The notes beneath the pieces were generated by a model. That model saw only the letters and a program-made list of their open reading frames with translations, searched no databases and was not told the DNA's origin. From Candidatus Woesebacteria bacterium GW2011_GWB1_39_10 (lineage in GTDB: Bacteria; Patescibacteriota; Microgenomatia; UBA8517): a stretch of DNA of 64,000 nucleotides. This document shows positions 37,230 through 63,785 of the stretch, piece after piece; within the stretch, counting starts at the first letter, position 1, and the number at the start of each line of letters is the position of its first letter. The DNA lies in the NCBI GenBank assembly GCA_000993205.1, contig LBVU01000003.1, positions 161,008-225,007 of the forward strand. Direction: 5' to 3'. The translations under genes and the position numbers were made by a program.

Positions 37230-37496
37230 GTGGCAAAAACTCGGTTGATACAAGAATTGGTTAAAAAAAAGCCGTATCTTATATGGCATACCAAAAATTA
37301 TGAACATCTTTCTGAGAGAAGTATTGTAGAAAATGTTTTAAATTATGGAAGCTGGGAGGATTATCTCTTTTTGGAAAAAGTTCTTGGTGTAAAGCAACTA
37401 CGCGGTTTTTTTGAAGACATAAAAAATAAAAAAAGGACAAACCTTAGACCTCAAACAATCAATTATTTTAGCAATTACTTCGGAAAATATGCATGA
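37230..37496 (+). CDS. small protein partner (putative antitoxin) of the AbiEii-like nucleotidyltransferase, pair 2
   Basis: 88 aa; overlaps the downstream nucleotidyltransferase gene by 8 nt; paralogue of 27561..27854. Confidence 0.45.
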   Translation: MAKTRLIQELVKKKPYLIWHTKNYEHLSERSIVENVLNYGSWEDYLFLEKVLGVKQLRGFFEDIKNKKRTNLRPQTINYFSNYFGKYA

Positions 37497-46689: not shown

Positions 46690-47059
46690 GGGGACGATCG
46701 GTTTCGACGAGAGCTCTTTAACAAAACTGCAAGCGGACTTTTATCTGTAGTCCTTAAAAATTGATTAAAAAACAAAAGCTAAATCTTATGATTCAGCTTC
46801 TGATTACGCGGGCAATTTTGCCTTCGCATAATCGGTGTCCTTTAATTTGATTCTCGACCGAATTAAATGGGCATAAACCCGTTCGGGATGCTGTTTGAAT
46901 CTTAACGATTTAAAGATTCACGCAAAAGACAAATAAATCTTACATCGAGCGTTCCTGTTGGCTGGATAAGCTCGATGAAAATTTAAAAACCAAATAAGCT
47001 TGTAGATGTTTTGTTTTAATGTTTTTCGGACGCGGGTTCGATTCCCGCCGTCTCCACAC
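46690..47059 (+). ncRNA. ssrA: tmRNA (SsrA)
   Basis: 5' GGGGACGAUCGGUUUCGACG; 3' tRNA-like end GGACGCGGGUUCGAUUCCCGCCGUCUCCA pairing with the 5' acceptor strand. Candidate tag reading frame from GCU (46778) to UAA (46829-46831) encoding AKSYDSASDYAGNFAFA. Ends are approximate. Confidence 0.8.
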
Positions 47060-47893: not shown

Positions 47894-48117
47894 TTGCTTA
47901 TCTTTCTGATTTATTTCCTACAGATCTTACTGCTTTGGCATTAGGACTAGAGGGCTGGACAATCCCATTAACGTTAGGATTTTTAATAGCCCTTTTTAGA
48001 AATTCGATCTCTTTTTCTCCTGCGCGTTTAGAAAAAACAGCCTCAAAAACTGGAAGCTCAGTTGTCATTGTTTGAATTTACATCTATTTAACCCGTTTAA
48101 TATATATAATTTGTTTG

Positions 48118-48205
48118 CGGTGAGGGTGGGATTCGGACCCACGGTAGGGAAAAACCCTACAAAGGTTTTCAAGACCTTCGCACTAGACCGCTATGCGACC
48201 TCACC
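48118..48205 (-). tRNA. tRNA-Ser (anticodon UGA)
   Basis: Hand-folded: acceptor GGUGAGG/CCUCACC, anticodon loop CUUGAAA, long variable arm, T-loop UUCGAAU, discriminator G; CCA not encoded. Confidence 0.75.
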
Positions 48206-48328
48206 TCGTCGAAATGGATTTCGCTTTCGAGTTTACCGCTATCGCTGAAACTCTATCGCTTCATCATTTCTCCTCTCAAAATTTCTAATGAAATTTTGTT
48301 GCTATTCTTCAGTTTAGCTTCGACGCGG

Positions 48329-48416
48329 CGGAGGAGGCGGGATTCGAACCCACGCGAGTCTATTAGACTCAGAAGTTTAGCGAACTTCCGCAATGGACCA
48401 GCTATGCGACTCCTCC
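48329..48416 (-). tRNA. tRNA-Ser (anticodon GCU, with an unusual C at position 33)
   Basis: Acceptor GGAGGAG/CUCCUCC, anticodon stem GAAGU/ACUUC with loop UCGCUAA, long variable arm, T-arm GUGGG-UUCGAAU-CCCGC. Confidence 0.6.
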
Positions 48417-48463
48417 AATTACACTCTGCAATTATATCAGGTTTTGGGGTATAATACGTTCAT

Positions 48464-48997
48464 ATGGATCCTGCCAAAGATCAAGAAAGTCAGCCACAAG
48501 CTGTGGTTGTTAGGCGCGAACCCGAGAGGGAATTGGTCAGCTGGACCGCGCCAGCCCGCCCATTTAAGCGGCGTGATAAACAATTTTTTGTGACAGTTTT
48601 TGCGATGGCCGGGATTTTGGGATTGGTACTTTTTTTTGCTGAAGGGTTTATGCCCGTACTTTTAATTATTGCGCTTGTTTTTTTGTATTATGTTCTTTCT
48701 ACGGTGGAGCCGGAAAGAATCGAATACAAAATAACCAGTAAAGGGATAAAAATCGGTAGCAAATTGACCGAATGGAGCTTTTTGAATAGATTTTGGTTTA
48801 CCAAAAGGTTCGATCAGGAACTGATGGTTATCGATACGGGTTTGATTCCGGGAAGAATCGAGATGGTTGTGGATCTGGCAGTAAAAGAAAAAATTACAAA
48901 AGAGATCTCTGCCTACCTGCCGCTTGAAGAAATGCCCGCATCCGGAATTGATAAATTTACGGATTGGATAGGGAAAAAGCTGCCAGGAAATAGTTAA
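48464..48997 (+). CDS. hypothetical two-TM membrane protein
   Basis: 177 aa, central hydrophobic hairpin FFVTVFAMAGILGLVLFFAEGFMPVLLIIALVFLYYVL. Confidence 0.4.
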   Translation: MDPAKDQESQPQAVVVRREPERELVSWTAPARPFKRRDKQFFVTVFAMAGILGLVLFFAEGFMPVLLIIALVFLYYVLSTVEPERIEYKITSKGIKIGSKLTEWSFLNRFWFTKRFDQELMVIDTGLIPGRIEMVVDLAVKEKITKEISAYLPLEEMPASGIDKFTDWIGKKLPGNS

Positions 48998-49012
48998 ATT
49001 ACTAGTAGACTC

Positions 49013-49086
49013 GTACCCGTAGCTTAATTGGATTAAGCATCAGGTTGCGGACCTGAAGATTGTGAGTCCGAGTCTCACCGGGTACA
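49013..49086 (+). tRNA. tRNA-Arg (anticodon read as GCG)
   Basis: Acceptor GUACCCG/CGGGUAC, D-stem GCUU/AAGC, anticodon stem UCAGG/CCUGA with loop UUGCGGA, T-loop UCCGAGU (unusual C55), discriminator A. Confidence 0.55.
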
Positions 49087-49139
49087 CACTGGAGGATGGG
49101 CGGGACGGTAACGCGTTGGTTTCGAATCCCGCGTAGAGC

Positions 49140-49224
49140 GGAGGGTTCGCATAGCGGCCAATTGCACGAGTTTCGAAAACTCGAGGGAGTAATCCCTACA
49201 CAGGTTCAAATCCTGTACCCTCCG
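49140..49224 (+). tRNA. tRNA-Ser (anticodon CGA)
   Basis: Acceptor GGAGGGU/ACCCUCC, anticodon stem CGAGU/ACUCG with loop UUCGAAA, long variable arm, T-arm ACAGG-UUCAAAU-CCUGU. Confidence 0.75.
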
Positions 49225-49264
49225 CTCGGTGCGGGACGACTCCTGTATCACGGGACTGAATAAT

Positions 49265-49723
49265 ATGATTACACCAAAACAAAATCAACAAATTTTAATA
49301 GGAATTGCCATTATTTTCAGAGACAACCGTGGAAAGAGGCAGTGGTTTGTAGTTAAACAAAAAGAAGACGGCGAATGGGAGTTGCCAAAGGTGACTGTCA
49401 GGAAAGGCGAATCCTCAGTTCGGGCCGTGATCCGCTTAACCGGAGAGCAAGCCGGAATGGCAACAAAAGTTTTGGAGGAAGCGGGTCGCGCTACCGGAAC
49501 AACCATAGTAAACGGAAAATCCATTTCCCAAAAATTTTATTATTATTTAATGATTCTTAAAGCTGGTGGAGCCGATGCGATAGGTTTTAACGATTTTATT
49601 TGGTTGGAGAACGCCCAGGCAATGAAAAAGGTAACCATTAAGAGGGAAAGGGAAATGTTAAGAAGTGCCAAAGATATACTAAAAGAGTGGGAAAAAACGC
49701 ACAACAAAAAACAACAGTTCTAA
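49265..49723 (+). CDS. NUDIX hydrolase
   Basis: Nudix-box-like GESSVRAVIRLTGEQAGM; ATG at 49265 (ORF-track frame from 49229 overlaps the tRNA). Confidence 0.55.
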   Translation: MITPKQNQQILIGIAIIFRDNRGKRQWFVVKQKEDGEWELPKVTVRKGESSVRAVIRLTGEQAGMATKVLEEAGRATGTTIVNGKSISQKFYYYLMILKAGGADAIGFNDFIWLENAQAMKKVTIKREREMLRSAKDILKEWEKTHNKKQQF

Positions 49724-50208
49724 GAGAGTTCTCTTCCGGTGGAGTAGTCTACGAAAAATTCAAGATTCCAGACTCCAGATTCGAATTTCGGTGGCTTGTT
49801 AGATCTACCACGCCAAGTACGCTCTTCCCCGAAAAATATTGGACTCTTCCAAAGGGATGGTTGGATGATGAGAGTGAAGGAATTCCGGGCCCTATGGCCA
49901 GTGGAATCAAAAAAGCAGATGAAAAAACTCTTCGAGAAACGGCCCTACGAGAAGTAAGAGAAGAAGGTGGGGTTGAAGCTAAAATAGTTGGTAAAATTGG
50001 TACCTCTACCTTTTTTTATACACATCCGGCCCGCGGAAAAATTATGAAGTTTGTAACATTTTATTTGATGGAATATTTGCGCAATTTGCCGGAAGGGTTT
50101 GATGGTGAAACCTCGGAAGTTGCATGGCTTGCGTACGATGAAGCATACAAAAGATTATCGTTCACAAAGGAAAAAGAAATACTTAAAAAGGCGAAAGATC
50201 TTCAGTAA
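49687..50208 (+). CDS. NUDIX hydrolase, second copy
   Basis: WTLPKGWLDDESEG...TLRETALREVREEGGVEAKIV (Nudix box REx2EExGU). Confidence 0.6.
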   Translation: MGKNAQQKTTVLREFSSGGVVYEKFKIPDSRFEFRWLVRSTTPSTLFPEKYWTLPKGWLDDESEGIPGPMASGIKKADEKTLRETALREVREEGGVEAKIVGKIGTSTFFYTHPARGKIMKFVTFYLMEYLRNLPEGFDGETSEVAWLAYDEAYKRLSFTKEKEILKKAKDLQ

Positions 50209-50284
50209 AGAACTGTCCTAATTTTTACGACTTTTTACAAATTAAGTCAATACTTGAAAAGAATATTTTGCTTTCTATAATAAG

Positions 50285-52294
50285 GTGGAAATGAAAGAAA
50301 GATTACCAGAGCTGCAACTTAAATTTATTGACAAAGGTCGCCCGACTTTTGACAAGGTTCAGGTAAAACTTGACAATCTTCATCGTTTAAAACAAGAAAT
50401 TGACGATGATATGAGTTTGCTGTGCGATTCGGTCGAGCTAAATATAAAGTTTGATGAACCTGTCAGAATAATTCCTATTTCTGACACACACCTTTTTGCT
50501 GTGCAAACAGATACAACCAAGGCCAACGAACTTCTTGGCAAACTTCGGGAGCTAAACACATTCGGTATTATTATGGGGGACTTTATCGAGGGAGCAAACC
50601 CAAAGATTGTCGACCATATTAATAATGTAGAGATAGGATTTACCCAGCAGGTAATAGCGGCAAAGAAGATAATTGAACCTTTTGTTAAAACAGGAAAGAT
50701 AATTTGTATGGTGGGAACCTTTACCGGACACGAAGGTTGGGGGGACACGACATTGGGACTAGATGTTGTTCAATTGATTGCACATGGTTTCAGTCAACCT
50801 GACGGCACCGATTTGAAAGTTTTGTATAACGGGGGGAAACTGATTATCCATCTTAACAACGGAGTAACTTATTCACAGCTGATCTACCATGCTCCAGGCG
50901 GGGGTGGATCAGATGAGATCAACCCCCTTGGTGCCCAGAGGAACCGTCTTTGGGAGCATATTAGCCATCGTGGCCCTACAGATGGAGCAGGTGGTGGCGA
51001 TTGGCACCATAGAGCGGGGGTTTCTAAAGAAACGGTGTTCGATTTAAAAGATGGAAAAGAAAGGAGCCATCTTCTGTTTTCAAACGGGACATCAAAAGGG
51101 AACGACCCGAATAGGCCCGATACCTTTTTAACTAAGATGGCGAAAGGGCCGACTCTGGCACCCGGGGTCCAACTAATTCTTAACCAACCGGCACGACAAA
51201 AAAATGACGGCAGAAACGGAGAATATGCTTGGTTGTCTTATGGATTTAATAAAGGCGAGATTTTGTATGAGGCGGCTAAGTTGTTGGATAAAACTGAAAA
51301 ACAGAAAAAAACAGGAGAATTAATTGAAGAAATAATAGACAGATCAAGAAAGCCCAAAGCAGAATTTGACAGGAAAAGTTCCAGGACAAAAATCAAAGAC
51401 AATCAGTTTGATACTCCCATGTTCGAAAACTTCAAATGGAAATTTGAGGACTCCGGCAGTATCCCGAGGATGGTATTTCTTTTGGCGGGAGCCAGATATT
51501 CAAGTACCAGTTTTGAAAAAAGGGACAAAGAGAAGTTATTTGAAATTGTCAAACAAATAGAAAGTAATCCTTTTCAATACGGTCTTGTAATGAGACATTT
51601 TATTGATCCGGATGTGGCCAAAATGTACAGCAGGGATTATGTCTTGGATCGGATGATTAATGACCTTTCGCCGATTGTTAACAAAGACCGGCTTTTAGGT
51701 TTTATGATGTCCTCCAGTTTATTGGACGACAGATGGAAGAAAGATGTTTTGGGAAATGTCATAAAAATTAAAGACAGTAGGGGAAAAATTCATTTTGAGA
51801 GAGAAAGGAAGTCTCGTTTGTATCCGGGAACTTATATTTATAGGGCGTTTTCCAAAAAAGTGCCTTTGTATCTTAACCAATCCTTGATGTATTTGGATTT
51901 CGGAAAGGCCTCATATGAATTTTTGCTTATGGACCATTTAGCCAACTCCGGAAGCGAATTTGACCCCTTTAGGGGTTTGGTGCAGGCCAGACGCAAGGCA
52001 CTCTTGAGATCCGATGTTGTTGCAGGCGGACACATGCTGGGTGGAGGTTTTATGACTACACCGGATGCAGATTATGTTGCCCCGGGCTGGTTTTCTGAAT
52101 ACGATTCCGGAGGAAAATCCAACAAAAAGAGGGCGCCGTTGGGGGGGCAGGCAGTGATCCTTTTCCCGGATCAGAAATTGGTTATTCCAACATCAACCTT
52201 GTTGGAGTCGGTAGATACCCATGAGGCATTAATTCTTCTAAAAGGACTGAGAAAAGAAGAAAAAGAGAAGATAATGAGTAAGAAAGTTAGATAA
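50285..52294 (+). CDS. calcineurin-like metallophosphoesterase domain protein with a 400-aa C-terminal extension of unknown function
   Basis: Motifs in order: IPISDTHL (DxH), IIMGDFIEG (GDxxD-like), VGTFTGHEGW (GNHE-like), GGDWHHRAG (GH.H). Confidence 0.5.
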   Translation: MEMKERLPELQLKFIDKGRPTFDKVQVKLDNLHRLKQEIDDDMSLLCDSVELNIKFDEPVRIIPISDTHLFAVQTDTTKANELLGKLRELNTFGIIMGDFIEGANPKIVDHINNVEIGFTQQVIAAKKIIEPFVKTGKIICMVGTFTGHEGWGDTTLGLDVVQLIAHGFSQPDGTDLKVLYNGGKLIIHLNNGVTYSQLIYHAPGGGGSDEINPLGAQRNRLWEHISHRGPTDGAGGGDWHHRAGVSKETVFDLKDGKERSHLLFSNGTSKGNDPNRPDTFLTKMAKGPTLAPGVQLILNQPARQKNDGRNGEYAWLSYGFNKGEILYEAAKLLDKTEKQKKTGELIEEIIDRSRKPKAEFDRKSSRTKIKDNQFDTPMFENFKWKFEDSGSIPRMVFLLAGARYSSTSFEKRDKEKLFEIVKQIESNPFQYGLVMRHFIDPDVAKMYSRDYVLDRMINDLSPIVNKDRLLGFMMSSSLLDDRWKKDVLGNVIKIKDSRGKIHFERERKSRLYPGTYIYRAFSKKVPLYLNQSLMYLDFGKASYEFLLMDHLANSGSEFDPFRGLVQARRKALLRSDVVAGGHMLGGGFMTTPDADYVAPGWFSEYDSGGKSNKKRAPLGGQAVILFPDQKLVIPTSTLLESVDTHEALILLKGLRKEEKEKIMSKKVR

Positions 52295-52333
52295 CTTCGA
52301 AACCTTCCTTCTTTGATATAATACGCTTTACAA

Positions 52334-52417
52334 GGTGGGGTGTCCGAGTGGTTCAAGGAGCACGATTGGAAATCGTGTGGTCGAAAGGCCTCGCAGGTTC
52401 GAATCCTGTCCCCACCG
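52334..52417 (+). tRNA. tRNA-Ser (anticodon GGA)
   Basis: Acceptor GGUGGGG/CCCCACC, anticodon stem CACGA/UCGUG with loop UUGGAAA, long variable arm, T-arm GCAGG-UUCGAAU-CCUGU. Confidence 0.75.
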
Positions 52418-52418
52418 C

Positions 52419-53195: not shown

Positions 53196-53477
53196 ATGAC
53201 AAAAACGCTATCCATTACTAAAGCCAGAGAGGATCTCACCAACTTGGTCGATCGTGCCAACAGACTTCTTGACGAATTTGTAATAACTGTAAACGGTTCT
53301 CCCGCTGCTGTTATCATGTCTGCCGCAGAGTATGAGTCGTGGAAGGAGACCAACGAGATTATGTCTGACCCTGGTTTGATGAAATCTATTCGAAAAGGAG
53401 AAAAAGAACTTAACGAAGGTAAGGGCCTTGATTGGGAAGAAGTTAAAAAAGAATTAAAGCTAAATGTACAAGATTGA
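53196..53477 (+). CDS. Phd/YefM-family antitoxin
   Basis: ITKAREDLTNLVDRANRLLDEFVITVNGSPAAVIMSAAEYESWKET. Confidence 0.7.
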   Translation: MTKTLSITKAREDLTNLVDRANRLLDEFVITVNGSPAAVIMSAAEYESWKETNEIMSDPGLMKSIRKGEKELNEGKGLDWEEVKKELKLNVQD

Positions 53478-53715
53478 GATCGCTCCACAAGCTAAAAAAC
53501 AGCTTAAAGATTTAAAAATAAGACACAAACTTTCCCTCCTTTCGATAATAGAAGACCTAAAAGACAACCTCTTTGCTGGGAAGGCTCTAACAAGAGATTT
53601 TAGCGGTAAATATTCCTACCGTGTCGGGGTTTACAGAATTATTTATAGAATAAATGTTAAAACTAAACTGGTAGAAATAATTTCTGCTGGTCATAGATCG
53701 ATTGTTTATAATTAG
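53464..53715 (+). CDS. RelE/ParE-family toxin
   Basis: YSYRVGVYRIIYRINVKTKLVEIISAGHR; 14-nt overlap with the antitoxin gene. Confidence 0.65.
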   Translation: MYKIEIAPQAKKQLKDLKIRHKLSLLSIIEDLKDNLFAGKALTRDFSGKYSYRVGVYRIIYRINVKTKLVEIISAGHRSIVYN

Positions 53716-53748: not shown

Positions 53749-55551
53749 ATGGACAATCAAGTTGCTGAGATTAAATCAAAGATAGATATAGTTTCCATTA
53801 TTGGGGAAAGAATCGATCTTAAAAAGGCCGGTAGAAATTATAAGGCAAACTGCCCTTTCCACGGCGAAAAAACTCCGTCCTTTATGGTTTCTCCAGAACT
53901 TCAAATTTTTAAATGTTTCGGTTGTTCTGAGAGCGGCGACGCTTTCTCCTTCTTGGAAAAATATGAGGGAATGGATTTTCCTGAGGCGTTAAAATACCTG
54001 GCGGACAAAATTGGAATTAAACTTCAAAAGACGGGAATTGGGCAATCAACCGATCGTGAAAGGCTGATCGAAGTCAATTCTCAAGCCCTGAGATTTTATA
54101 ATTACCTTCTTTTAGAACATCCGGTCGGGAAGAAAGCTTTGGAATATCTAGTTCACGATAGAGGATTGAAACCAGATACAATCAAAGAATTCCAATTAGG
54201 GTTTTCTCCGGAAAACTCCTATTCCCTCAAGAAATTTTTAATTGACAAGAAAAAGTTTTTACCAAGCGATATTGAAAGGGCGGGTATAGGGTTAATTCGT
54301 GGGTCAAATATTTACGACAGATTCAATGGACGCATAACTTTTCCGCTTTTTGACCATAGGGGTAATCCGATTGGTTTTGCAGGAAGAATTTTGCCCTGGG
54401 ATAAACGCGAAACCGGAAAATATATAAATTCTCCCGAAACCCCGCTCTATCACAAGAGTAGTGTTTTATATGCATTGAATCTGACACGAGGTTGGATTAA
54501 AAAGAAAAAGGTTGCAATTATCGTTGAGGGAGAGCTTGATGCAATTTCTTCTTATCAGGCCGGAATTAAAAATGTGGTTGCGATTAAAGGATCGGCCCTG
54601 ACAGAAGAGCAAATCCGTCTTCTTTCCCGTTTTGCACCTAAGTTTATTTTAGCGCTTGACGCCGATATGGCTGGGGACGCAGCTTCTCGCCGAGGACTTA
54701 CTATTGCTGGTAATGCAGGAATTGAGGTAAAGATTGCCAAATTAAGTAATTTTAAAGACCCAGATGAGGCTGCGAGACACGACCTTGCAGGTTATAAAAA
54801 AGACCTAATTGAGGCAGAAGGATCTTGGGACTATCTGATTAACTCTGTATTTTCCAGGTTCAATTCATCAACCGGTTCCGGTAAGGCAAAAATTTCAAAA
54901 GAATTAATACCAATTTTATCAGAGATTGGAGATAGGATTGTCCAGGCGCACTATGCCAATGTTATCGCCAGGCGCTTAGATGTGCCCCTTATGGCAGTAA
55001 CAGACGAAGTGGATAAAAATAAGAAGGCAGTCGCTCTTCCCAAGATTTTGACTGAATCTGAAATCGGATCCGACAAAGACAGGAAAGTTCTTCTGGAGGA
55101 AAGGCTTCTTGCAATGGGATTTCAGACAGATCCGAAAATTTTCCTTTCTGAAAGTGTTTCCAAACTTATTTCAACACCTTTAAATATAAGAATTTTGGAA
55201 GAGTATATGAAATTTTCGTCGTTAAACAAGGACTTTGATCTTTCGGTATTTGCAAGCTCGTTGTCTAAAGAGCTGTTTGACGGTTTTGCCCAAATGGTTT
55301 TGGGTGGGAATGAAGAAGAGTTTTTTGACCCGGACCTCTTTAAAAAAGAATTTGATTTGGTTCAAAAAGAGCTTAAAATATTTTCCATAAAGGATAATCT
55401 TAAATTTCTGGCCTCCGAAATGCGGAATTTGGAAAAAGATGGCGATAAAGACAAGCTTTTTAAAGTTCAAAATGAATTCGGAAAACTTGCTGAACAATTG
55501 TCCGGGTATACTGAGGCCGACGGAGGGGGTATAATACTCAAAGAACCATAG
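53749..55551 (+). CDS. dnaG: DNA primase
   Basis: CHC2 zinc finger CPFHGEKTPSFMVSPELQIFKCFGC; Toprim IVEGELDAISSYQAG and LALDADMAGD. Confidence 0.85.
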   Translation: MDNQVAEIKSKIDIVSIIGERIDLKKAGRNYKANCPFHGEKTPSFMVSPELQIFKCFGCSESGDAFSFLEKYEGMDFPEALKYLADKIGIKLQKTGIGQSTDRERLIEVNSQALRFYNYLLLEHPVGKKALEYLVHDRGLKPDTIKEFQLGFSPENSYSLKKFLIDKKKFLPSDIERAGIGLIRGSNIYDRFNGRITFPLFDHRGNPIGFAGRILPWDKRETGKYINSPETPLYHKSSVLYALNLTRGWIKKKKVAIIVEGELDAISSYQAGIKNVVAIKGSALTEEQIRLLSRFAPKFILALDADMAGDAASRRGLTIAGNAGIEVKIAKLSNFKDPDEAARHDLAGYKKDLIEAEGSWDYLINSVFSRFNSSTGSGKAKISKELIPILSEIGDRIVQAHYANVIARRLDVPLMAVTDEVDKNKKAVALPKILTESEIGSDKDRKVLLEERLLAMGFQTDPKIFLSESVSKLISTPLNIRILEEYMKFSSLNKDFDLSVFASSLSKELFDGFAQMVLGGNEEEFFDPDLFKKEFDLVQKELKIFSIKDNLKFLASEMRNLEKDGDKDKLFKVQNEFGKLAEQLSGYTEADGGGIILKEP

Positions 55552-55611
55552 TTTTAATGGTTGTAGTTTCGTGCTCATGGGGCACGATAACTGCAATCAT
55601 TTGTTTCACAA

Positions 55612-56691
55612 ATGATACGAAAACCTGTTTTAGATTTAATTAAAAAAGGACGCGATCAGGGATTTTTAACCCAAGATGAAATTTTGGATGTTTTTTCTGA
55701 TGCTGAAGAACGAGTAATTGAGCTTGACGAACTTTACGAAAAACTTCTTGGCGAAGGCATTGACGTCTTTGAATCGGTAACCCCCGGGGAAATTGAAAGT
55801 GACGAAAAAGCCAAAGAGAAGCTTGACCGTGAGATCGAACTTCTTACAAAACTTGAAGGAATTGAGTCTACAGACCCCGTCAGGCAATATCTTAGGGAAA
55901 TAGGACGGGTTCCGCTTCTTTTGGCCGAGGATGAGGTTGAGCTTGCCAAAAGATACGAAAAGGCCGATAAAAGAGCAAAAGACAAGCTAACCGAGAGCAA
56001 TTTGCGTTTGGTCGTTTCTATTGCCAAGAAATATATTGGGCGCGGCCTATCGCTTCTGGATCTTATTCAGGAAGGGAACCAGGGGTTAATCCGTGCAGTA
56101 GAAAAGTATGACTGGAGAAAGGGTTACAAATTTTCGACATATGCAACCTGGTGGATAAGACAGGCCATAACCCGCGCCATTGCTGATCAGGCCAGAACCA
56201 TTAGAATTCCTGTCCACATGGTTGAGACGATCAATAAAATTTACAGGACCTCAAGACGCTTGATGCAGGAACTTGGCAGGGAACCCACCCCGGAAGAAAT
56301 TGGAGGAGAACTTGAATTGGACGGGGACCGTGTCCGGGAGATATTTAAGATTGCACAGGAAACAACTTCGCTTGAAGCTCCAGTTGGGGAAGATCAGGAG
56401 AGTTTTTTGGGGGACTTTATTCCTGACGAAAACGCGCTTTCTCCCGTAGACCAAGCCAGTAAACAACTTCTTAAAGATCATTTGGAAGAAGTTTTGGGTA
56501 CTTTGTCCGAGAGAGAAGCCAAAGTCCTTAAACTCAGGTTCGGTTTGGAGGGAAGCAAGGCAATGACACTTGAAGAGGTGGGTAAGGTTTTTGGTGTTAC
56601 TCGCGAACGTATTCGTCAAATTGAAGCAAAGGCCCTAAGAAAATTAAAACACCCCTCGCGTCGTAAGAAACTCCAAGACTATTTGGACTAA
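55612..56691 (+). CDS. rpoD: RNA polymerase primary sigma factor (sigma-70)
   Basis: [16 protein letters not shown], region 2 [50 protein letters not shown], region 4 [27 protein letters not shown]. Confidence 0.9.
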
Positions 56692-56745
56692 CCACTTTAG
56701 GTTGTCAGTGGTTGCTTCAAACCAATATTCTGGTATGATATTGGC

Positions 56746-57894
56746 ATGATTCTATACGAATTTGAAGGAAAAAAACTTCTTTCGGATAAAGGTATTAAAG
56801 TTCCTCCGTTTCAGATTGTGGATTCGGCTACAAATAAGGTCAGAATAAAATTTCCGTTAGTTCTTAAGGCCCAGGTCCTTTCCGGTAAAAGAAAAGATGC
56901 CGGTGGAATTATTTTTGTAAACAAAAAAGAAGAATTCAAATCTAAGGTTAAAAAACTTTTGGGTAAAAAAATAAACGGAGAAGTTGTTACGGAAATACTT
57001 GCGGAGGAAATAATTAAACACAGACGCGAATTTTATTTGGCTTTATCATACGACACTGGTCGCAGTGGACCTGTTTTAACTTTTTCTGAATCGGGAGGGA
57101 CCGGAATTGAAACCAGGGAATCCAAAATTGTTCCATTAAATATCCTTAGTCCCCAAAAAACAAAAATCGCGCTTCCCACAAAAATCCAAAAAATATTACC
57201 CAAATTAATCAAGTCGTTCTTGGATAACGACTTGGTGCTTCTAGAAATTAACCCTCTTGTAATTGATGAAAAAGGAAATGTTTATGCGCTTGATGCCAAG
57301 GTCAAATTGGATGATTCCGCAATCGGACGTCATAAAGAGTGGACTTATTCACCCAGGTCTATCCCCGGTCATAATCCTACAATAAGAGAAATTGCCGCCA
57401 AGAAAATTGATGAAGGTGATTATCGGGGCACGGCGGGGTCCACATATATTGATTTACCGGGGGATATTGCGGTGCTTGCATCCGGAGGGGGAGCCTCGTT
57501 AACTGCGATGGATGCGTTGGTTAAAGCAGGTGGCGCTCCAGCCAACTATACCGAATATTCAGGAAACCCCTCCAAGGAAAAAGTGGCAAAATTAACCAAG
57601 ATTGTACTATCTAAAAAAGGAATAAACGGCCTTTGGGTGGTTGGGGCCATTGCCAACTTTACCAATATTTTTGAGACGCTTACAGGGTTTGTAGAATCAT
57701 TGAGAAACATTAAACCCAAGCCGGAATACCCAATTGTAATTAGGCGCGGCGGCCCGCACGACAAAGAAGCTTTTGCCATGCTTAGGAAAGTTAAGGATTT
57801 TGATTTGCATCTTTACGGTGAGAAAACATCTATCGCCGAGTCGGCTAAAATTGTGTCCCGTCTGGCAAAAAAATATGCATCTACCAAAAAGTAA
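56746..57894 (+). CDS. SucC-like ATP-grasp subunit (succinyl-CoA / citryl-CoA synthetase beta-type subunit)
   Basis: MILYEFEGKKLLSDKGIKVPPFQIV (compare SucC MNLHEYQAK.L....G.PVP), ATP-grasp plus CoA-ligase domains in 382 aa. Confidence 0.6.
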   Translation: MILYEFEGKKLLSDKGIKVPPFQIVDSATNKVRIKFPLVLKAQVLSGKRKDAGGIIFVNKKEEFKSKVKKLLGKKINGEVVTEILAEEIIKHRREFYLALSYDTGRSGPVLTFSESGGTGIETRESKIVPLNILSPQKTKIALPTKIQKILPKLIKSFLDNDLVLLEINPLVIDEKGNVYALDAKVKLDDSAIGRHKEWTYSPRSIPGHNPTIREIAAKKIDEGDYRGTAGSTYIDLPGDIAVLASGGGASLTAMDALVKAGGAPANYTEYSGNPSKEKVAKLTKIVLSKKGINGLWVVGAIANFTNIFETLTGFVESLRNIKPKPEYPIVIRRGGPHDKEAFAMLRKVKDFDLHLYGEKTSIAESAKIVSRLAKKYASTKK

Positions 57895-58777
57895 TTCAAA
57901 ATTCATAGGACAGGGGTTAACAGGAACGGAGGGTTCAACCTCTTTGGCGCACATGCTGGGTTATGGAACAAAGATTGTAGCCGGAGTAACACCGGGTAAG
58001 GGTGGGCAAGAGGTACAAGGAGTACCAATATTCAATACAGTAAAAGAAGCTCTAAAAAAGGTTGGGAAAGTGGATGGAACGGTGCAATTTGTTCCGCCAC
58101 TATTTACCAAAGGGGCAGTGGTGGAGGCAATTGACGCAGGAATAAAATTTATATTAATTGGCGCCGAAAAAGTACCGACAAGGGATGCTGCTGAAATGTT
58201 TGCGCTTGCCAAGAAGAAAAGAGTAACAATAATCGGTCCGAGTTCTGTAGGGATTATTTCTCCTAAAAACAAAATCAAACTGGGCCAAATTGGAGGAGGA
58301 ACTCCGGAGAGGGTTTTTGTTAAGGGCAATATCGGAGTTATATCCAAATCCGGCGGAATGACTTCCGAGCTTGGTTTAATTCTTAAAAATAACGGAATGG
58401 GAGTTTCCTGGGCGGTAGGCATCGGTGGAGACAGAATAATATGTACCGACTTTACGGACTTTTTGATGGAATTAGAACAAGATAAGGATACGAAAGCCTC
58501 GGTCGTTTTTGGAGAACTTGGAGGAAAGTATGAAGAAAAAATTGCCGAATATGTAAGGAAAGGGAAAATAAAAAAACCGGTTGTTGCATTCATTGCCGGA
58601 GAATTTACCAACAAATTACCGAGTGATGTTCAATTTGGTCATGCGGGAGCTATAATAGAAGGGAAGCGTGGTCTTCCTTCGGAAAAAAGGAAGATTTTGA
58701 AAGAAGCCGGAATTTTGGTTGCTGAGAATTTTGATGAGATCCCTGTATTATTGAGGAAGATCCTATCGTCGAGCTGA
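57875..58777 (+). CDS. SucD-like CoA-binding subunit (succinyl-CoA / citryl-CoA synthetase alpha-type subunit)
   Basis: KFIGQGLTGTEGSTSLAHMLGYGTKIVAGVTPGKGG, SGGMTSELG, VGIGGD, phospho-His loop QFGHAGAI. ATG at 57875 overlaps the upstream gene by 20 nt (ORF-track frame from 57773). Confidence 0.7.
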   Translation: MHLPKSNSKFIGQGLTGTEGSTSLAHMLGYGTKIVAGVTPGKGGQEVQGVPIFNTVKEALKKVGKVDGTVQFVPPLFTKGAVVEAIDAGIKFILIGAEKVPTRDAAEMFALAKKKRVTIIGPSSVGIISPKNKIKLGQIGGGTPERVFVKGNIGVISKSGGMTSELGLILKNNGMGVSWAVGIGGDRIICTDFTDFLMELEQDKDTKASVVFGELGGKYEEKIAEYVRKGKIKKPVVAFIAGEFTNKLPSDVQFGHAGAIIEGKRGLPSEKRKILKEAGILVAENFDEIPVLLRKILSSS

Positions 58778-58797
58778 GCTCGACTCCAGGATGACGT

Positions 58798-59463
58798 ATG
58801 ACAAAAACTATCGTACATAAAAATAATTTGCCATATTTTGGAAATGAAAACCTATTGGAAATTGCTCCCAAGAGAAGTTTTGCAGGTATGATCTTTGAAC
58901 TTCTTAGCGGAAAAGAAGCTGATAGTCATCAGCTCAAGGTTTTTGAAACAATCCTCAATACTTCCATAGATCACGGAGAAGAAACCCCATCGGCTACGGA
59001 AACGATTAGGGCAGCAAAAGATGGAAAAACCATAAGTGAGTCCGTTGCTGCCGGAATTTTGCAAATAAACGATACACACGGCGGGGCGATTGAACCGGCG
59101 ATGGCGATGTTTTACGAAATTCGAAATTCGAAGCACGAAATACGAAACTTTGTGAAGGAACAGTTGGAACAGGGAAAGAGACTGTCGGGATTTGGGCATA
59201 GAATCTATGAAGTAGACCCCAGGAGCCAGCTTCTTTTTAAACTTGCCAAAGATGAAGGAATCTCAGATGAATATATAAATTTGGCCCGTGATATCGAAAG
59301 GGAGCTTTTGGAGCAAAAAGGCAAAGTTTTGCCGGTAAATATAGACGGGGCAATTGCAGCCATCCTCTGCGCTTTTGGTTGGGAACCAAAATTGGGTAAA
59401 GCCGTCTTCATCATCGCCCGCACCCCTGGGCTATGCGGACAGTTTCTAAATTCTTCAAAATAG
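58798..59463 (+). CDS. short citrate-synthase-like protein (citryl-CoA lyase Ccl-like / AclA C-terminal domain-like)
   Basis: HGEETPSATETIRAAKDGKTISESVAAGILQINDTHGGAIE and GFGHRIYEVDPRS correspond to the citrate synthase catalytic His/Asp region; only 221 aa. Confidence 0.55.
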   Translation: MTKTIVHKNNLPYFGNENLLEIAPKRSFAGMIFELLSGKEADSHQLKVFETILNTSIDHGEETPSATETIRAAKDGKTISESVAAGILQINDTHGGAIEPAMAMFYEIRNSKHEIRNFVKEQLEQGKRLSGFGHRIYEVDPRSQLLFKLAKDEGISDEYINLARDIERELLEQKGKVLPVNIDGAIAAILCAFGWEPKLGKAVFIIARTPGLCGQFLNSSK

Positions 59464-59554
59464 CTTTGCAAGTGTAAAATTGAGCAAACTTAGACTATAA
59501 TAGCTTCAGAGAATTATAAATTTTAAATTATTAACTCTAAATTGCACTTTATAA

Positions 59555-59626
59555 TCCCCTGTAGCTCAATGGTAGAGCAGAATCCTGTTAAGATTAAGGT
59601 TGCTGGTTCGAATCCAGCCGGGGGAG
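59555..59626 (+). tRNA. tRNA-Asn (anticodon GUU)
   Basis: Acceptor UCCCCUG/CGGGGGA, D-arm GCUC-AAUGGUA-GAGC, anticodon loop CUGUUAA, T-arm GCUGG-UUCGAAU-CCAGC, discriminator G. Confidence 0.75.
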
Positions 59627-61105
59627 CAAGTGGCTCCTTATTATAATGTGGTTCTGCCTACGTAAGGTTGCAAACACGGGTGTTTCAACAACTCTTGTAA
59701 TCTCCTTATCTTTGATATAAATGCCCTCAAAGAAGAATCTTAAGTAATGTCTCTTTAGGTGGGGTGGGGCCTCCAGATATGTCTGATGGATATTTCTTGT
59801 AAGAGCAAGAACTTCGTCGACAAGATTTATATCCAGTTTTTGCCGACCCTCCAATTCAACCAGCCGGTCATTAAGATTATTTATCTGTTCCTGAAGTTTG
59901 ATGTGTTGCCTTTTGAAAACATCCCTGCCTATAACACCCTCAACCAGAAGGTCTTCTAATTTATTCCTATGCTTTTCGATGGCTCTTTTTTGATTGACGA
60001 TTATTTGCCTTTCTGATTTGAAGGTTTTTCTTCCGCCTTCGAAGTGCTTTCTAATCTTTTGTCTTACAAGTTCAGTAAATTCTTGGCCGAATTGGAAGTT
60101 TTTGAAGAGATTGGCAACTCTTTTTTCCATGTCCTCTAATTCAATAAACGATCCAGGACAACCACCCGGAGTATAGCAGTGATAGTAACCAATCCGATCC
60201 TTTTTATAACCATTGTGATGGTAATAATGCCATTCTGCGGTCAGTCTGGAGGAGTGCTCCGAACAAAAAACAATTCCCCTTAAAAGGAAATTGTGCTTTC
60301 TCTGTCGAATTAAAAATTGTCTGTGCTTTGCCGCTGTAAGTTGGCATTGGTCGAACAAGGCCTTGGTTATTAAAGGTGTGTGGTTTCCCGTCTTCTCTGT
60401 TCCTCCCCATTTCATTAAACCGTAAAAGAAGGGGTTGGATAGTAATTGTTGGAGGCTGCTATCACAAAACATCTTTCCGTTCCTTGCAGTAAGACCTTTT
60501 GAGAACATCTCCTTCGACAGCCGTACATAAGAGTAATTGCCTGTGGAATATAGATTAAATGTTTCTTCTACCAATGGTGCCGTAATTGGATCAGGCACGA
60601 CTATTTTTTTATTATTCTTCCTTATGTTTTTGTATCCCACTGGAGCCCAACCCGGCCACCATCCATCCCTATACTTCTGCCTCAGAGCATCTTTTGTTCT
60701 TTGTCCGTTGACCTCACTTTCCCATTCGGCTACTGAGGCAAATATATTGCCAATTAGTCCGTTTCCCACGTCTCCACCCTCAACAATGGAAATTAAACTG
60801 ACTCCTTTATTCCTGAACTCCTTTCTTATCCTCGAGAAGTCAGCAACATTCCTGGCAAATCTGTCAATCTTATAAACAATTACAGAATCGACAGGGTTAT
60901 CGTCAACGGCCTTAAGAAGTTTTTGGAATTCCGGTCTCTCTACGGTTCTGGCACTTTTTCCTTCCTCCAAAAAAGCACTCTTTATTTGGTATCCATTATT
61001 TTTGGCATACTCAACACAAGCCCTTTTTTGGTTATCGAGAGAAAAACCTTCCTTAGCCTGTTCATCCGTGCTCACGCGTAAATAGATATAGCAAGCCTTA
61101 TTCAT
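59594..61105 (-). CDS. large serine recombinase (resolvase/invertase catalytic domain plus recombinase and zinc-ribbon domains)
   Basis: CYIYLRVSTDEQAKEGFSLDNQ (catalytic Ser in RVSTDEQ), DSVIVYKIDRFARN, 503 aa, C-terminal Cys/His-rich region. Confidence 0.8.
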   Translation of the reverse strand: MNKACYIYLRVSTDEQAKEGFSLDNQKRACVEYAKNNGYQIKSAFLEEGKSARTVERPEFQKLLKAVDDNPVDSVIVYKIDRFARNVADFSRIRKEFRNKGVSLISIVEGGDVGNGLIGNIFASVAEWESEVNGQRTKDALRQKYRDGWWPGWAPVGYKNIRKNNKKIVVPDPITAPLVEETFNLYSTGNYSYVRLSKEMFSKGLTARNGKMFCDSSLQQLLSNPFFYGLMKWGGTEKTGNHTPLITKALFDQCQLTAAKHRQFLIRQRKHNFLLRGIVFCSEHSSRLTAEWHYYHHNGYKKDRIGYYHCYTPGGCPGSFIELEDMEKRVANLFKNFQFGQEFTELVRQKIRKHFEGGRKTFKSERQIIVNQKRAIEKHRNKLEDLLVEGVIGRDVFKRQHIKLQEQINNLNDRLVELEGRQKLDINLVDEVLALTRNIHQTYLEAPPHLKRHYLRFFFEGIYIKDKEITRVVETPVFATLRRQNHIIIRSHLLPRLDSNQQP

Positions 61106-61281
61106 ATGTAAAATACGTGATGGCAGTTAGGACATACAAAAGTGTCGGTATATTTAAAATCTTCAGATGTAGCGTCAGTGATAGATAAATCTTTGGTAAT
61201 TAAAATCGTGCCATAGCAATAAGGACATTCAACCACCCTCGGATCAACGGTCAGAACAATGGCTTGTTTGTGTTTATTCAT
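61102..61281 (-). CDS. small (59 aa) zinc-ribbon protein immediately upstream of, and overlapping, the recombinase start (possible directionality factor or regulator)
   Basis: Hand-translated MNKHKQAIVLTVDPRVVECPYCYGTILITKDLSITDATSEDFKYTDTFVCPNCHHVFYI*; CxxC...CxxC; below the ORF-track cutoff. Confidence 0.4.
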   Translation of the reverse strand: MNKHKQAIVLTVDPRVVECPYCYGTILITKDLSITDATSEDFKYTDTFVCPNCHHVFYI

Positions 61282-61300
61282 TTCGTGTCACATCCATCCG

Positions 61301-61552
61301 CTAGTCATCTTCGGTAAATACATTGAAAGCGAGCCAAAAGCTGCCTCGGCTGGTATAGTCTCCATCGTTCCAAAAATCTGTAAACTTTCCGAAATTATCA
61401 AATGACTTGCCGTAACTTACCTTTAGATAGACTTTTAAACCCTTAATCCTCCAGTTTATTAGGCGTGCCTTTTTTAAAAAAAGCCTTTTCTTTCCAGTTC
61501 TGTACTTATCCATTAACTTCCTGTTTTTGTATATTTTTATTAAAAATTTCAT
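61301..61552 (-). CDS. hypothetical small protein (mobile-element cargo)
   Basis: ORF only. Confidence 0.3.
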   Translation of the reverse strand: MKFLIKIYKNRKLMDKYRTGKKRLFLKKARLINWRIKGLKVYLKVSYGKSFDNFGKFTDFWNDGDYTSRGSFWLAFNVFTEDD

Positions 61553-61689
61553 ACCTAAATAAGTTCCTATTGATAACCATTTTTTGTGTTGCTATCCTAT
61601 CCATACAAACAGGACGTTGCCACTAAAACGGCGCAACCTATGCGTAAAATAGAGGTTCTTAGTTTCTAGCTGGAGCCTCTATTTTTTGG

Positions 61690-61995
61690 TTAATTAATTT
61701 TATGTACTCTTAGATCAAAATATAAGATACAAATACCCCATAGGAAAATATCCATGAATATAGCCAATGGAACCAGAGAAAAATTGGATTTATATGTAGT
61801 ATCGATAATCTTTTGATTATCGATACCGCGAGCGGTTTCGGGCGCTCGCGAGATACCTTCAGAGACAGATCCTTCATTAAAAAGATTCATATTATTATTT
61901 AGGTGGAAACCCATTTCCCTTGGAAACAGGAAGGCAAATTCCTCTACAAGCGGAATGATGTTACCCATTTGAAAAGCGGAAATATTTTTCCTCAT
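61690..61995 (-). CDS. hypothetical small protein (mobile-element cargo)
   Basis: ORF only; 4-nt overlap with the upstream gene. Confidence 0.3.
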   Translation of the reverse strand: MRKNISAFQMGNIIPLVEEFAFLFPREMGFHLNNNMNLFNEGSVSEGISRAPETARGIDNQKIIDTTYKSNFSLVPLAIFMDIFLWGICILYFDLRVHKIN

Positions 61996-62312
61996 GTTAA
62001 TTTTTGTTCTAATAGTTCGGATAAATCATATTGATTGGAATTCAGTTTGCCTTTGGTTTTGGGATTAAAGGCGCCCCTTTTCCAAGTAATGAGACCCCTT
62101 CTTCTAAGCGCTACGAGATGATTTCTGACTTGCCTTGCGGATAGACCAATATCTTTTGCTATCCTTTCTTGTGAGGGAAACGAGTAATTTTTTCCTCCCA
62201 GCCTACTTATAAGGTTGTATAGAACTAATTTTGCTCCAGGGGGAATATTTTTATCCTGCATAACTTTCTTGAATGTATATGTATCTAATTTAAATTTGTT
62301 TTCCATATTCAT
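61992..62312 (-). CDS. winged-helix DNA-binding protein
   Basis: ISRLGGKNYSFPSQERIAKDIGLSARQVRNHLVALRRRGLITWKRG is helix-turn-helix/wing-like. Confidence 0.4.
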   Translation of the reverse strand: MNMENKFKLDTYTFKKVMQDKNIPPGAKLVLYNLISRLGGKNYSFPSQERIAKDIGLSARQVRNHLVALRRRGLITWKRGAFNPKTKGKLNSNQYDLSELLEQKLT

Positions 62313-62334
62313 CTCAATCGAAACACTCTCTTTG

Positions 62335-62586
62335 TCAGATTTCGTAATCTCTGTGAATCAAACCTTTTAAGTAATCAAAATTGTCAAATAGGAGACGGGG
62401 GTTTGCGGATGCCCTGTTTGTCCAGTATCGCTGAAGCAGGTTCTTGACCTCCGGAGTGTTAGGAAAGCAAAAGTGAACTTTTTGTGGGTCGCTTTTGATT
62501 ATTTTTACAATAGATATACCCTCCGTAAGAAGATATGCGGACGATTTGATATCAGAAGTCTTAAATAATTCAGTTTGTTTCTCCAT
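62335..62586 (-). CDS. hypothetical small protein
   Basis: ORF only. Confidence 0.3.
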   Translation of the reverse strand: MEKQTELFKTSDIKSSAYLLTEGISIVKIIKSDPQKVHFCFPNTPEVKNLLQRYWTNRASANPRLLFDNFDYLKGLIHRDYEI

Positions 62587-62769
62587 GGTTAATCTTAATA
62601 ATCTTTTTGTTTCTTCTGGTTTTTATGTATGTAGTGTGTAACTCCAGCATTTTGGCAACCAACTCTGCCGCTGCATCAATCTCTTTGTTATCAATCTCAA
62701 TAGGCTTTTCCATAAATGAATAATTTATGTCTTAATTTTCCTATAAAAAGAAGTTGTTAGGTTGGAAAA

Positions 62770-63468
62770 CTAGAAAGCTGGAGCCTTCTCAACAAGAGAT
62801 TTGTATGTTTCGACACCTTTCCTGATTGTGCTTTCGTTGAAGCAAGTACACCCTTTGGGTTTGTTTCTACCAATGTCGTGAGGTTCTTTAATTGGGCACG
62901 CTTCTGTTTCTCCATCGGCAATATCTTTAAATGGTTTTCTTGATCTATAAGCAAGGTACCACTCTCGGTATTTTTTAATTGATGGTTTCTTTTTATCAAC
63001 CTTCCATACAGGATTGATGTACTCGTATTCTGGAACACCCTTTTCGTTTCCAATTTTATCTGCGTATTCCCAGTAGGCTTTAAGTACATCCTCATTTCTA
63101 ACACCTGGAGAAAGGACTATAAAATATGTCTCGTCGAGCATCTTCCCCTCGGTATCGAAGGTATCAAGAGTAGAGTCGAGATAGGCTGGTAGATAATCCC
63201 CGTCGGAAATTGCCCCACATAAGGCCGCCTTCTCGATTACTCGTCTAAAGACAATTGGTAAATAAAGACGTTTCCTGCTTTTTTCCACCTCTTTTTCTAG
63301 AAATTTTTCATCACCTGCAAATTGGTTATATTTATCTTGGGGGAGGAGGGTGCTAATTCCTACAACCGTTCTTATCCTCCCAATCTCTTTCGAGAATTTA
63401 TCCCGGTCAACAACGGGTGCAACATCCGCAAACAGCCTGTCATCGGTTATATCAATCTTAATATCCAT
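62770..63468 (-). CDS. hypothetical protein with a C-terminal Cys cluster
   Basis: 232 aa; ...ETEACPIKEPHDIGRNKPKGCTCFNE; no family recognised. Confidence 0.35.
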   Translation of the reverse strand: MDIKIDITDDRLFADVAPVVDRDKFSKEIGRIRTVVGISTLLPQDKYNQFAGDEKFLEKEVEKSRKRLYLPIVFRRVIEKAALCGAISDGDYLPAYLDSTLDTFDTEGKMLDETYFIVLSPGVRNEDVLKAYWEYADKIGNEKGVPEYEYINPVWKVDKKKPSIKKYREWYLAYRSRKPFKDIADGETEACPIKEPHDIGRNKPKGCTCFNESTIRKGVETYKSLVEKAPAF

Positions 63469-63785
63469 CTGGTTGGAATTATAATCCTTTCAACAACAGA
63501 GTTGTCTCAAAATTAGCATGTATATTGAGGCCAGTACGGCAAAATTCAGGGGAGTTTTGAGAGCAAAAACGCCAAAAATTGTATATTTGTTTATTCAGCC
63601 TGCAGTACATATAATAAGACCATCAGATTACCTAAACCCATTTAGGGCATGGTAGCAAATCCTTGAGAGGAGAAAGCCCGTCATCGAGCACCTCTCAAGG
63701 TCGTATGGGGAAACCCGTACGGGTAGCGCAAGCTATCACGGTGGCGGGCTTTTTGTTCGCCACCCACAGAGTAGGGGGTGAAACT

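Follow-up and report, generated by a model that had tools for sequence, protein, structure and literature searches.

Why would a bacterium without a citrate cycle carry, side by side, genes whose products resemble both subunits of succinyl-CoA synthetase (SCS) and part of a citrate synthase (CS)? The question is raised by a 64-kb stretch of DNA from Candidatus Woesebacteria bacterium GW2011_GWB1_39_10, a member of the Candidate Phyla Radiation (CPR); the whole of this stretch is referred to here as the window. The citrate cycle is lacking in Patescibacteria (PMC7137472), the lineage to which this bacterium belongs. Exactly three open reading frames (ORFs) on one strand fill positions 56746-59463, an interval whose ends coincide with where ORF1 starts and ORF3 stops. 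A sequence-only reading of the same DNA had described a trio of SucC-like, SucD-like and short citrate synthase-like genes at this place, and the ORFs and their Pfam domains bear the description out. The trio is probably one operon for the two-step, ATP-dependent cleavage of citrate, with ORF1 and ORF2 forming a citryl-CoA synthetase (CCS) and ORF3 encoding a citryl-CoA lyase (CCL).

ORF1 (56746-57894, plus strand, 382 amino acids) is predicted to encode the large (beta, CcsA-like) subunit, with an ATP-grasp domain and a citrate-binding domain of the ATP-citrate lyase (ACL) type. The small (alpha, CcsB-like) subunit, which has a Rossmann domain for CoA binding and a phosphohistidine loop, is assigned to ORF2 (57875-58777, plus strand, 300 amino acids), and the putative CCL, a short form without the C-terminal tail, to ORF3 (58798-59463, plus strand, 221 amino acids). 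ORF1 and ORF2 overlap by 20 nucleotides (nt) and a gap of 20 nt separates ORF2 from ORF3, which is the layout of an operon. The longest mechanical ORF for the second gene opens at a TTG at 57773, and the start backed by homology is the ATG at 57875. Several public gene calls begin it instead at a TTG at 57944 (277 amino acids), behind an in-frame GGAGG; the ATG is preferred because the N-terminal GxTGxxG CoA-binding motif is lost with the later start. At 0.417, the GC content of the three genes is near that of the window (0.397) and gives no sign of recent acquisition.

The putative synthetase subunits and lyase

The Pfam E-values of the trio are far beyond chance. ORF1 matches ATP-grasp_2 (1.1e-26) and, in its C-terminal half, Citrate_bind (PF16114, 2.2e-24; 86 bits against a cut-off of 26.8), and Ligase_CoA is absent from its reported Pfam matches. 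Among sequences in the PDB, ORF1 is closest to the CcsA chain 6hxq_B (6e-47), followed by Chlorobium AclB (6hxj_A, 7e-41) and then by SCS-beta chains (6e-31 and weaker). In NCBIfam its best names come from SCS-beta models, at only 177-183 bits against cut-offs of 370-375.55.

The residues expected of each domain can be located in an alignment of ORF1 with PDB references, E. coli SucC and human ACLY. The ATP-grasp residues K41, E95, E167, N169 and D183 are conserved, and G273, N304, F305, T306 and R334 align to G309, N346, F347, T348 and R379 of human ACLY, citrate contacts reportedly listed by Sun et al. 2010. The human sequence used matches PDB 6poe_A from end to end (2550 bits). Three motifs of ORF1 (EYSG, ANFT and RRGGP) are identical to those of ACL, whereas SCS-beta has GG, VRCD and RLEG in their places; the substrate loop reads GAIANFTN and is followed by RRGGP, and the GGIVRCD loop of the SucCD type is not present. 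The citrate-site residues are invariant in 28 of 28 homologues (60-66% identity). In a bootstrapped neighbor-joining (NJ) tree, ORF1 lies outside the SCS-beta subunits of E. coli, Thermus and Campylobacter (98%) and shares a clade with CcsA of Hydrogenobacter thermophilus and the beta subunits of ACL, so that the ATP-grasp subunit does not branch within the succinyl-CoA synthetases, the outcome that the sequence-only reading had named as damaging to its proposal. Judged by its sequence, the family of ORF1 is decided by motifs; fold cannot separate SCS, CCS and ACL.

ORF2 combines CoA_binding (2e-21) with Ligase_CoA (3.1e-14), and its NCBIfam scores of 280-287 bits fall below the SCS cut-offs of 336-353. 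The phosphohistidine corresponds to H256 (ACLY H760), which lies in an octapeptide, VQFGHAGA, identical to that of human ACLY, and E98 corresponds to the catalytic glutamate E599 of ACLY. Two insertions in ORF2 are common to CcsB and ACLY (IGGG, following the KIG strand, and LPS, ahead of the histidine loop), and both are missing from the four SCS-alpha subunits compared, those of E. coli, Thermus, Aeropyrum and Methanocaldococcus. These features suggest that ORF2 is the CcsB-type partner, an assignment that is less certain than that of ORF1. The gene order had been given earlier as CcsB, CcsA, Ccl; PDB naming makes ORF1 CcsA and ORF2 CcsB, so the names are exchanged and the operon reads ccsA-ccsB-ccl.

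The two subunits might also be read as an ADP-forming acetate-CoA ligase (ACD) beside a functionally unrelated ORF3, given that NCBI calls the orthologue in CP066686 an 'acetate--CoA ligase family protein' and that alpha-subunit models of NCBIfam give weak matches. Their score is 74 bits, far under the cut-off of 567, and the domain order is like that of SCS and CCS, not like that of ACD. Both the citrate-binding domain and its residues are present, and the strict synteny that the two genes keep with the lyase gene in different phyla speaks for a pathway in common, which makes an acetate-CoA ligase very improbable here. Malate-CoA ligase (117 against 604) and 3-hydroxypropionate-CoA ligase (24 against 1300) were rejected on score.

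ORF3 matches the Pfam profile Citrate_synt at 2.9e-31, spanning only positions 138-346 of 357. The top four NCBIfam matches are all CCL models, and CS models reach at most 78 bits against cut-offs above 330. In the PDB, the CCL 6hxp (2.2e-39, 138 bits) stands well ahead of the best CS (7e-20, 75 bits) and of the lyase modules of ACL (3.5e-14, at most 56 bits), so that the comparison of the short ORF with Ccl and the ACL lyase that had been proposed for it favors CCL. An AlphaFold (AF2) model built from 29 homologues has a predicted local distance difference test (pLDDT) score of 93.2. The top Foldseek match of this model is 6HXP, the CCL of H. thermophilus (TMq 0.94, root-mean-square deviation 1.8 Å), followed by 39 chains of ACL lyase modules and then by citrate synthases (TMq at most 0.76).

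Both motifs that had first drawn attention to the 221-residue ORF3 are found, HGGAIE at residues 94-99 and GFGHRIYEVDPR at residues 131-142. By alignment, its residues H59, H94, H134 and R142 correspond to H229, H264, H305 and R314 of E. coli CS, and D183, F204 and R208 to D362, F383 and R387. Seven of the eight E. coli CS active-site residues listed in PMC13147460 are present in ORF3 and are invariant across 29 sequences. Length is kept as well: of over 100 cluster representatives with identities down to 57%, nearly all have 219-233 amino acids. The family is small: a library of 1.84 billion cluster representatives yields just 28 clusters similar to ORF3 at E <= 1e-30, or 501 when the threshold is relaxed to E <= 1e-10. 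Those closest to it are 226-227 amino acids long and most others 240-270, and a few proteins of 555-725 amino acids match in their C-terminal part. Because length and catalytic residues are conserved across homologues, ORF3 is not a decayed fragment, and sequence and model together indicate a CCL, not a CS in decay. A degraded short ORF, which by its own account would have refuted the sequence-only reading, is countered by this conservation, which extends over more than 100 homologues.

A decaying CS fragment behind an ordinary SucCD is nevertheless what the public annotation suggests. The identical proteins of Woesebacteria GW2011_GWB1_39_10 are named 'Succinyl-CoA synthetase, beta subunit' (ORF1) and 'Citrate synthase' (ORF3) in GenBank and UniRef, and ORF2 appears as 'hypothetical protein' or 'CoA-binding domain-containing protein'; identical proteins also occur in related Rifle groundwater assemblies. 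The best NCBIfam names for both ORF1 and ORF2 are those of SCS, and the best PDB sequence for ORF2 is an archaeal SCS-alpha. This explanation is hardly credible, however, when ORF1 and ORF2 score 183 and 287 bits against SCS cut-offs of 375 and 353, when ORF1 carries Citrate_bind and an ACL citrate motif in place of the succinate-site motif and splits from SCS-beta at 98%, and when ORF3 has the full length of its clade, is under evident purifying selection and is predicted to fold as a CCL.

The three genes also travel together. A scan of GTDB (one genome per species) with the CCL alignment gave 80 loci. With tblastn, genes like ORF1, ORF2 and ORF3 are found in this order on one strand in practically every one of these that has enough upstream DNA. 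The loci include Patescibacteria (Woese-, Davies-, Woyke-, Curtiss-, Taylor- and Uhrbacteria and others) and, beyond them, one Nanohalarchaeote, many Anaerolineae/Chloroflexota, Deferribacteres, Acidobacteriota, Coatesbacteria and others. Synteny of three genes across phyla argues for a functional unit. In some loci unrelated genes (GIY-YIG, HAD, nitrilase-like) stand between members of the trio. All-against-all clustering of 32 CPR loci found no conserved metabolic neighbors; only TrpRS, FtsH, DnaG, RpoD and PolA recur, and the adjacency to rpoD is limited to close relatives.

A long form of the trio occurs in the loci L045 (7423-10702), L052 (7387-10699) and about 40 others outside the CPR (Anaerolineae, Deferribacteres, Acidobacteriota, Coatesbacteria and more). 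Its beta subunit of about 510-520 amino acids has a C-terminal tail with two ferredoxin-like CxxCxxCxxxC motifs and is without the ACL citrate-site residues, GVASQEQ and RLGGN replacing ANFT and RRGGP and Citrate_bind scoring only 20-28 bits. In its alpha subunit Asp replaces the catalytic Glu, and the histidine motif is FSHAGA. These sequences may belong to a separate acid-CoA synthetase/lyase system, so far uncharacterised, that uses a different substrate.

The missing arm of the lyase and comparison with known systems

Several observations weigh against assigning the trio to CCS and CCL. A fold search with the model of ORF1 (pLDDT 83.8, predicted template modeling score 0.53) matches SCS-beta, CcsA and ACL at similar E-values. 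For ORF2, the phylogenetic comparison with SucCD, AclAB and CcsAB that had been envisaged gives a divided answer: the two insertions and VQFGHAGA favor CcsB and ACLY, but it is ambiguous by score, with archaeal SCS-alpha (6e-69) slightly ahead of CcsB (1.6e-63) in the PDB, and by tree, the small-subunit NJ tree having supports of only 37-57%. The best model for ORF3, NF004869 (3.5e-48), reaches 164.2 bits and so stays under the curated CCL cut-off of 212. ORF3 stops 13 residues after R208 and is without the C-terminal tail of some 30-40 residues, and with it the equivalent of E. coli CS R407 (R421' of pig CS) is absent. No citrate transporter and no enzyme making or using oxaloacetate is found in the window or is conserved at the 32 CPR loci, and no biochemical work on any CPR member of the CCS/CCL family was found in the literature.

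In citrate synthase, R407 reaches into the active site of the partner subunit. The tail follows the consensus E-E-x5-[KR]-P-x-R-[RK]...Y-x-G-P in canonical CCLs and aligns to the C-terminal arm found in citrate synthase and in ACLY, including the arginine equivalent to R407. It is kept in the CCL of H. thermophilus, in Curtiss-, Uhr- and Parcubacteria, in Nanohalarchaeota and in all homologues outside the CPR. In the GTDB loci, by contrast, the lyases of Woese-, Davies- and Woykebacteria end within a few residues of one another, and those of Woese- and Daviesbacteria form a group with 96% bootstrap support in which all members are without the arm. A frameshift as the cause of the loss was rejected because the 91 nt from the stop codon to the following tRNA-Asn gene are AT-rich and non-coding and because the short length is conserved. 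A description of a tail-less lyase was not found in the literature. By these alignments the trio is a compact variant, and the conserved loss of the arm is its one real departure from canonical CCL.

The closest characterised system is the CcsAB/Ccl of H. thermophilus, reportedly described by Aoshima et al. 2004. This CCS (EC 6.2.1.18, PDB 6HXQ) and CCL (EC 4.1.3.34, PDB 6HXP) consist, like the trio, of three separate polypeptides with the same domain content. They provide the best PDB sequence for ORF1 and ORF3 and the best fold for ORF3, and they share with the trio the CcsB-type insertions, the catalytic His/His/Asp in the lyase and, in the synthetase, the phosphohistidine. Identity is about 31-36%, and the trio is smaller throughout (382, 300 and 221 amino acids against PDB chains of 429, 353 and 268), ORF3 lying below the usual size of a free-standing CCL, roughly 260 amino acids. 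The H. thermophilus CCL has a tail ending in ...VYEELTTEKPFSKRLDEERDVEYTG, the whole of which is missing from ORF3, and its CcsA has ANNT in the citrate loop where ORF1 has ANFT, as in ACL. The hosts differ as well: H. thermophilus is an autotroph using the reductive tricarboxylic acid (rTCA) cycle, whereas the host here is a CPR fermenter without a tricarboxylic acid (TCA) cycle.

ATP-citrate lyase (AclAB, PDB 6HXJ and 6HXI; human ACLY) carries out the same overall chemistry as that proposed for the trio, and it shares EYSG, ANFT and RRGGP with ORF1 and, in human ACLY, VQFGHAGA with ORF2. In ACL the lyase is fused to the alpha subunit; in the trio, ORF2 stops at 58777 and a 20-nt spacer leads to ORF3 in another frame, and the lyase gene is separate in all related CPR loci. 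ORF3 also keeps the histidine of HGGA, which is of the CS/CCL type, where human ACLY has Phe. A reading as CcsAB plus Ccl thus appears to fit better than a split AclAB, because the lyase is nearer to free-standing CCL (138 bits) than to the ACL modules (at most 56 bits), although the citrate motif of the beta subunit is by sequence ACL-like.

In the NJ tree with ORF1, a rough one of 31 sequences, ACL beta subunits (Chlorobium, Methanothrix and human) nest among the CPR CCS large subunits at 97%, with H. thermophilus CcsA excluded; this is only a lead on the origin of fused ACL.

SucCD has in common with ORF1 and ORF2 the architecture of two subunits, the ATP-grasp residues, a phosphohistidine loop and the general fold, and it differs in the substrate loop and arginine, which in ORF1 are of the citrate type, and in the two insertions of ORF2 that SCS-alpha does not have. 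Citrate synthases and 2-methylcitrate synthases share with ORF3 the fold of the catalytic large domain and seven of the eight listed active-site residues, but CS is about 360-430 amino acids long, and ORF3 is without its N-terminal region and without the R407 arm.

Could the trio act on another hydroxy-, di- or tricarboxylate, such as 2-methylcitrate, or on a smaller acid cleaved to acetyl-CoA and a 2-oxoacid other than oxaloacetate? The R407 equivalent, which binds carboxylate in CS, is gone from the whole Woese/Daviesbacteria clade; the first 20 residues of ORF3 are unlike those of canonical CCL and include a clade-invariant His7; every NCBIfam score is under its curated cut-off; and the long-form trio has lost the citrate-site residues, so that specificity varies within the superfamily. 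Yet the subunit that selects the acid, the synthetase, keeps all ACL citrate contacts (ANFT, RRGGP and EYSG), invariant in the clade, and the seven active-site residues of CS that the lyase retains do not vary either. A different substrate is on this evidence quite improbable, and citrate remains the preferred one.

Proposed chemistry and its direction

Best matches, citrate-site motifs, the fold of ORF3 and synteny all support the CcsAB plus Ccl interpretation that the sequence-only reading had put forward. With citrate as the substrate, ATP bound in the ATP-grasp domain of ORF1 would phosphorylate His256 of ORF2. The phosphohistidine loop would then swing to the CoA site, and the phosphate would pass to citrate held by G273, N304, T306 and R334 of ORF1, giving citryl phosphate. 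Attack by CoA would yield (3S)-citryl-CoA, which ORF3 would split in a retro-Claisen reaction (with D183 as the base, and H94 and H134) to acetyl-CoA and oxaloacetate. The residues and domains for each step are present; the chemistry is inferred by analogy with the homologous SCS, CCS and ACL.

ATP-citrate lyase is reported to run as an ATP-conserving citrate synthase in Desulfobacter postgatei (Möller, Schauder, Fuchs & Thauer 1987). The reaction energies are -5.9 kJ/mol for CCS, -2.1 kJ/mol for CCL and -8.0 kJ/mol for ACL (PMC13147460). The direction cannot be read from the sequence because the CCS and CCL reactions are near equilibrium. A groundwater study proposed that Patescibacteria and DPANN with an ACL module import citrate that others release, turning it into acetyl-CoA and oxaloacetate (PMC13014828). 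That this TCA-less organism likewise cleaves citrate from its host or community for acetyl-CoA and a C4 acid has, in our estimation, about an even chance of being correct, the direction being a matter of inference.

The same enzymes run in net reverse would convert acetyl-CoA, oxaloacetate, ADP and Pi to citrate, ATP and CoA and would act as an ATP-conserving 'citrate synthase' in a fermenter. The small energies of the two steps (-5.9 and -2.1 kJ/mol; PMC13147460) would allow this, the CPR bacteria are fermenters that live by substrate-level phosphorylation and have no citrate cycle, and the operon has no adjoining citrate transporter. Reverse flux would, however, consume one C4 acceptor per ATP and need steady oxaloacetate and citrate export, with a gene for neither in the window; routes from acetyl-CoA to acetate yield equal ATP with no co-substrate; and the sole published reading for Patescibacteria is citrate cleavage (PMC13014828). 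We consider net synthesis of citrate unlikely, though it is the chief rival of cleavage and ranks ahead of an altered substrate.

The rest of the window and the meaning of the proposed operon

The trio lies directly downstream of dnaG (53749-55551) and rpoD (55612-56691), the latter directly upstream of ORF1. The intergenic region between rpoD and ORF1 (56692-56745, plus strand) is 54 nt long and, as read from the sequence, holds a short hairpin at 56692-56711 and a TG-extended -10-like element, TGGTATGAT, at 56731-56739 (plus strand), 6 nt before the ATG of ORF1. The TGGTATGAT region is a possible promoter of the operon's own or part of a leaderless start of ORF1; a scan of 55400-59800 with promoter and terminator consensus sequences found promoter-like sites before ORF1, yet its site counts were no higher than in shuffled sequence.

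Downstream of the trio, a tRNA-Asn gene (59555-59627, plus strand) is followed by the gene of a large serine recombinase (59594-61105, minus strand, 503 amino acids), which overlaps the 3' end of the tRNA gene. Past the recombinase gene come small ORFs, which in the identical locus L001 are HTH_36- and DUF5659-like, and a LOOT RNA (63629-63737; Rfam RF03000, 83 bits). The region 59555-64000 has the look of a mobile element or prophage integrated at tRNA-Asn. In a 94%-related Woesebacteria chromosome (L008), no tRNA-Asn follows the trio.

The rest of the window holds dnaA and dnaN, translation genes, a cluster like those of type IV secretion, toxin-antitoxin genes and many unknowns, and a Pfam survey of 30 large ORFs in it found no further gene of central metabolism. 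The genes dnaA (13635-15026) and dnaN (15268-16392) lie beside the minimum of the cumulative GC skew at about 12-14 kb, and the window therefore probably includes the replication origin. The cluster resembling type IV secretion or conjugation genes (18270-27028, minus strand) includes a TraG/VirB4-like P-loop ATPase of 1191 amino acids (21187-24762, minus strand), which is split by an intein that bears a LAGLIDADG endonuclease domain, and a PrgI-like protein (25967-27028, minus strand); several large ORFs beside the TraG/VirB4-like gene have no Pfam match. Two separate ORFs resemble AbiEii toxins (27851-28489 and 37489-38118). The smpB gene (46225-46686) is directly followed by the tmRNA gene (46690-47059), whose tag is AKSYDSASDYAGNFAFA. 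Four tRNA-Ser genes and one tRNA-Arg gene form a cluster at 48117-52418. A mechanical ORF at 52335 begins within tRNA-Ser(gga), and the true start of this Exo_endo_phos gene therefore lies further downstream. A PhdYeFM antitoxin/ParE toxin pair (53196-53715) is found just upstream of dnaG.

The sequence-only reading had regarded the trio as unexpected metabolic content beside rpoD. Its position is as described, but the content is less of a surprise, as CCS/CCL-type genes in the CPR and ACL-type citrate cleavage in Patescibacteria are already in the literature. According to a 2022 preprint, sequences from CPR and DPANN that carry SCS or CS annotations are monophyletic with CCS and CCL (10.1101/2022.10.25.513756), and some homologues are already called 'citryl-CoA synthetase large subunit' and 'citryl-CoA lyase' by JGI and in recent annotations from NCBI. 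Such genes and a role for them in citrate cross-feeding have thus been reported before; the trio is a further case, mis-annotated until now, and does not overturn current understanding.

What the trio adds is in the first place a corrected annotation, in which genes for an SCS beta subunit, a hypothetical protein and a citrate synthase in a widely used set of CPR genomes become a probable citryl-CoA synthetase/lyase operon. Scoring them as remnants of the TCA cycle or as markers of rTCA carbon fixation would mislead metabolic surveys. Through the operon, many Microgenomates would be able to connect citrate, acetyl-CoA, oxaloacetate and ATP near equilibrium despite the lack of a citrate cycle, a link that fits ideas of organic-acid cross-feeding. 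The loss of the arm and the compact subunits would also make it a handy minimal system in which to ask what parts of the ACL and CS active sites are dispensable. A bolder view, which we hold to be doubtful, is that the trio of Woese- and Daviesbacteria is the smallest known ATP-dependent citrate-cleaving system, one that has dispensed with the lyase arm and from which a TCA-less episymbiont, living on citrate that its host or community releases, draws most or all of its acetyl-CoA (together with a C4 acid). In a variant of this view the system would run in reverse and yield ATP, and a corollary, resting on the rough tree, is that, among living enzymes, the unfused ones of the CPR type may be most closely related to the ancestor of fused ACL. 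If acetyl-CoA is indeed drawn in this way from host or community citrate, the operon would be a prokaryotic counterpart of the role that cytosolic ACLY plays in eukaryotes.

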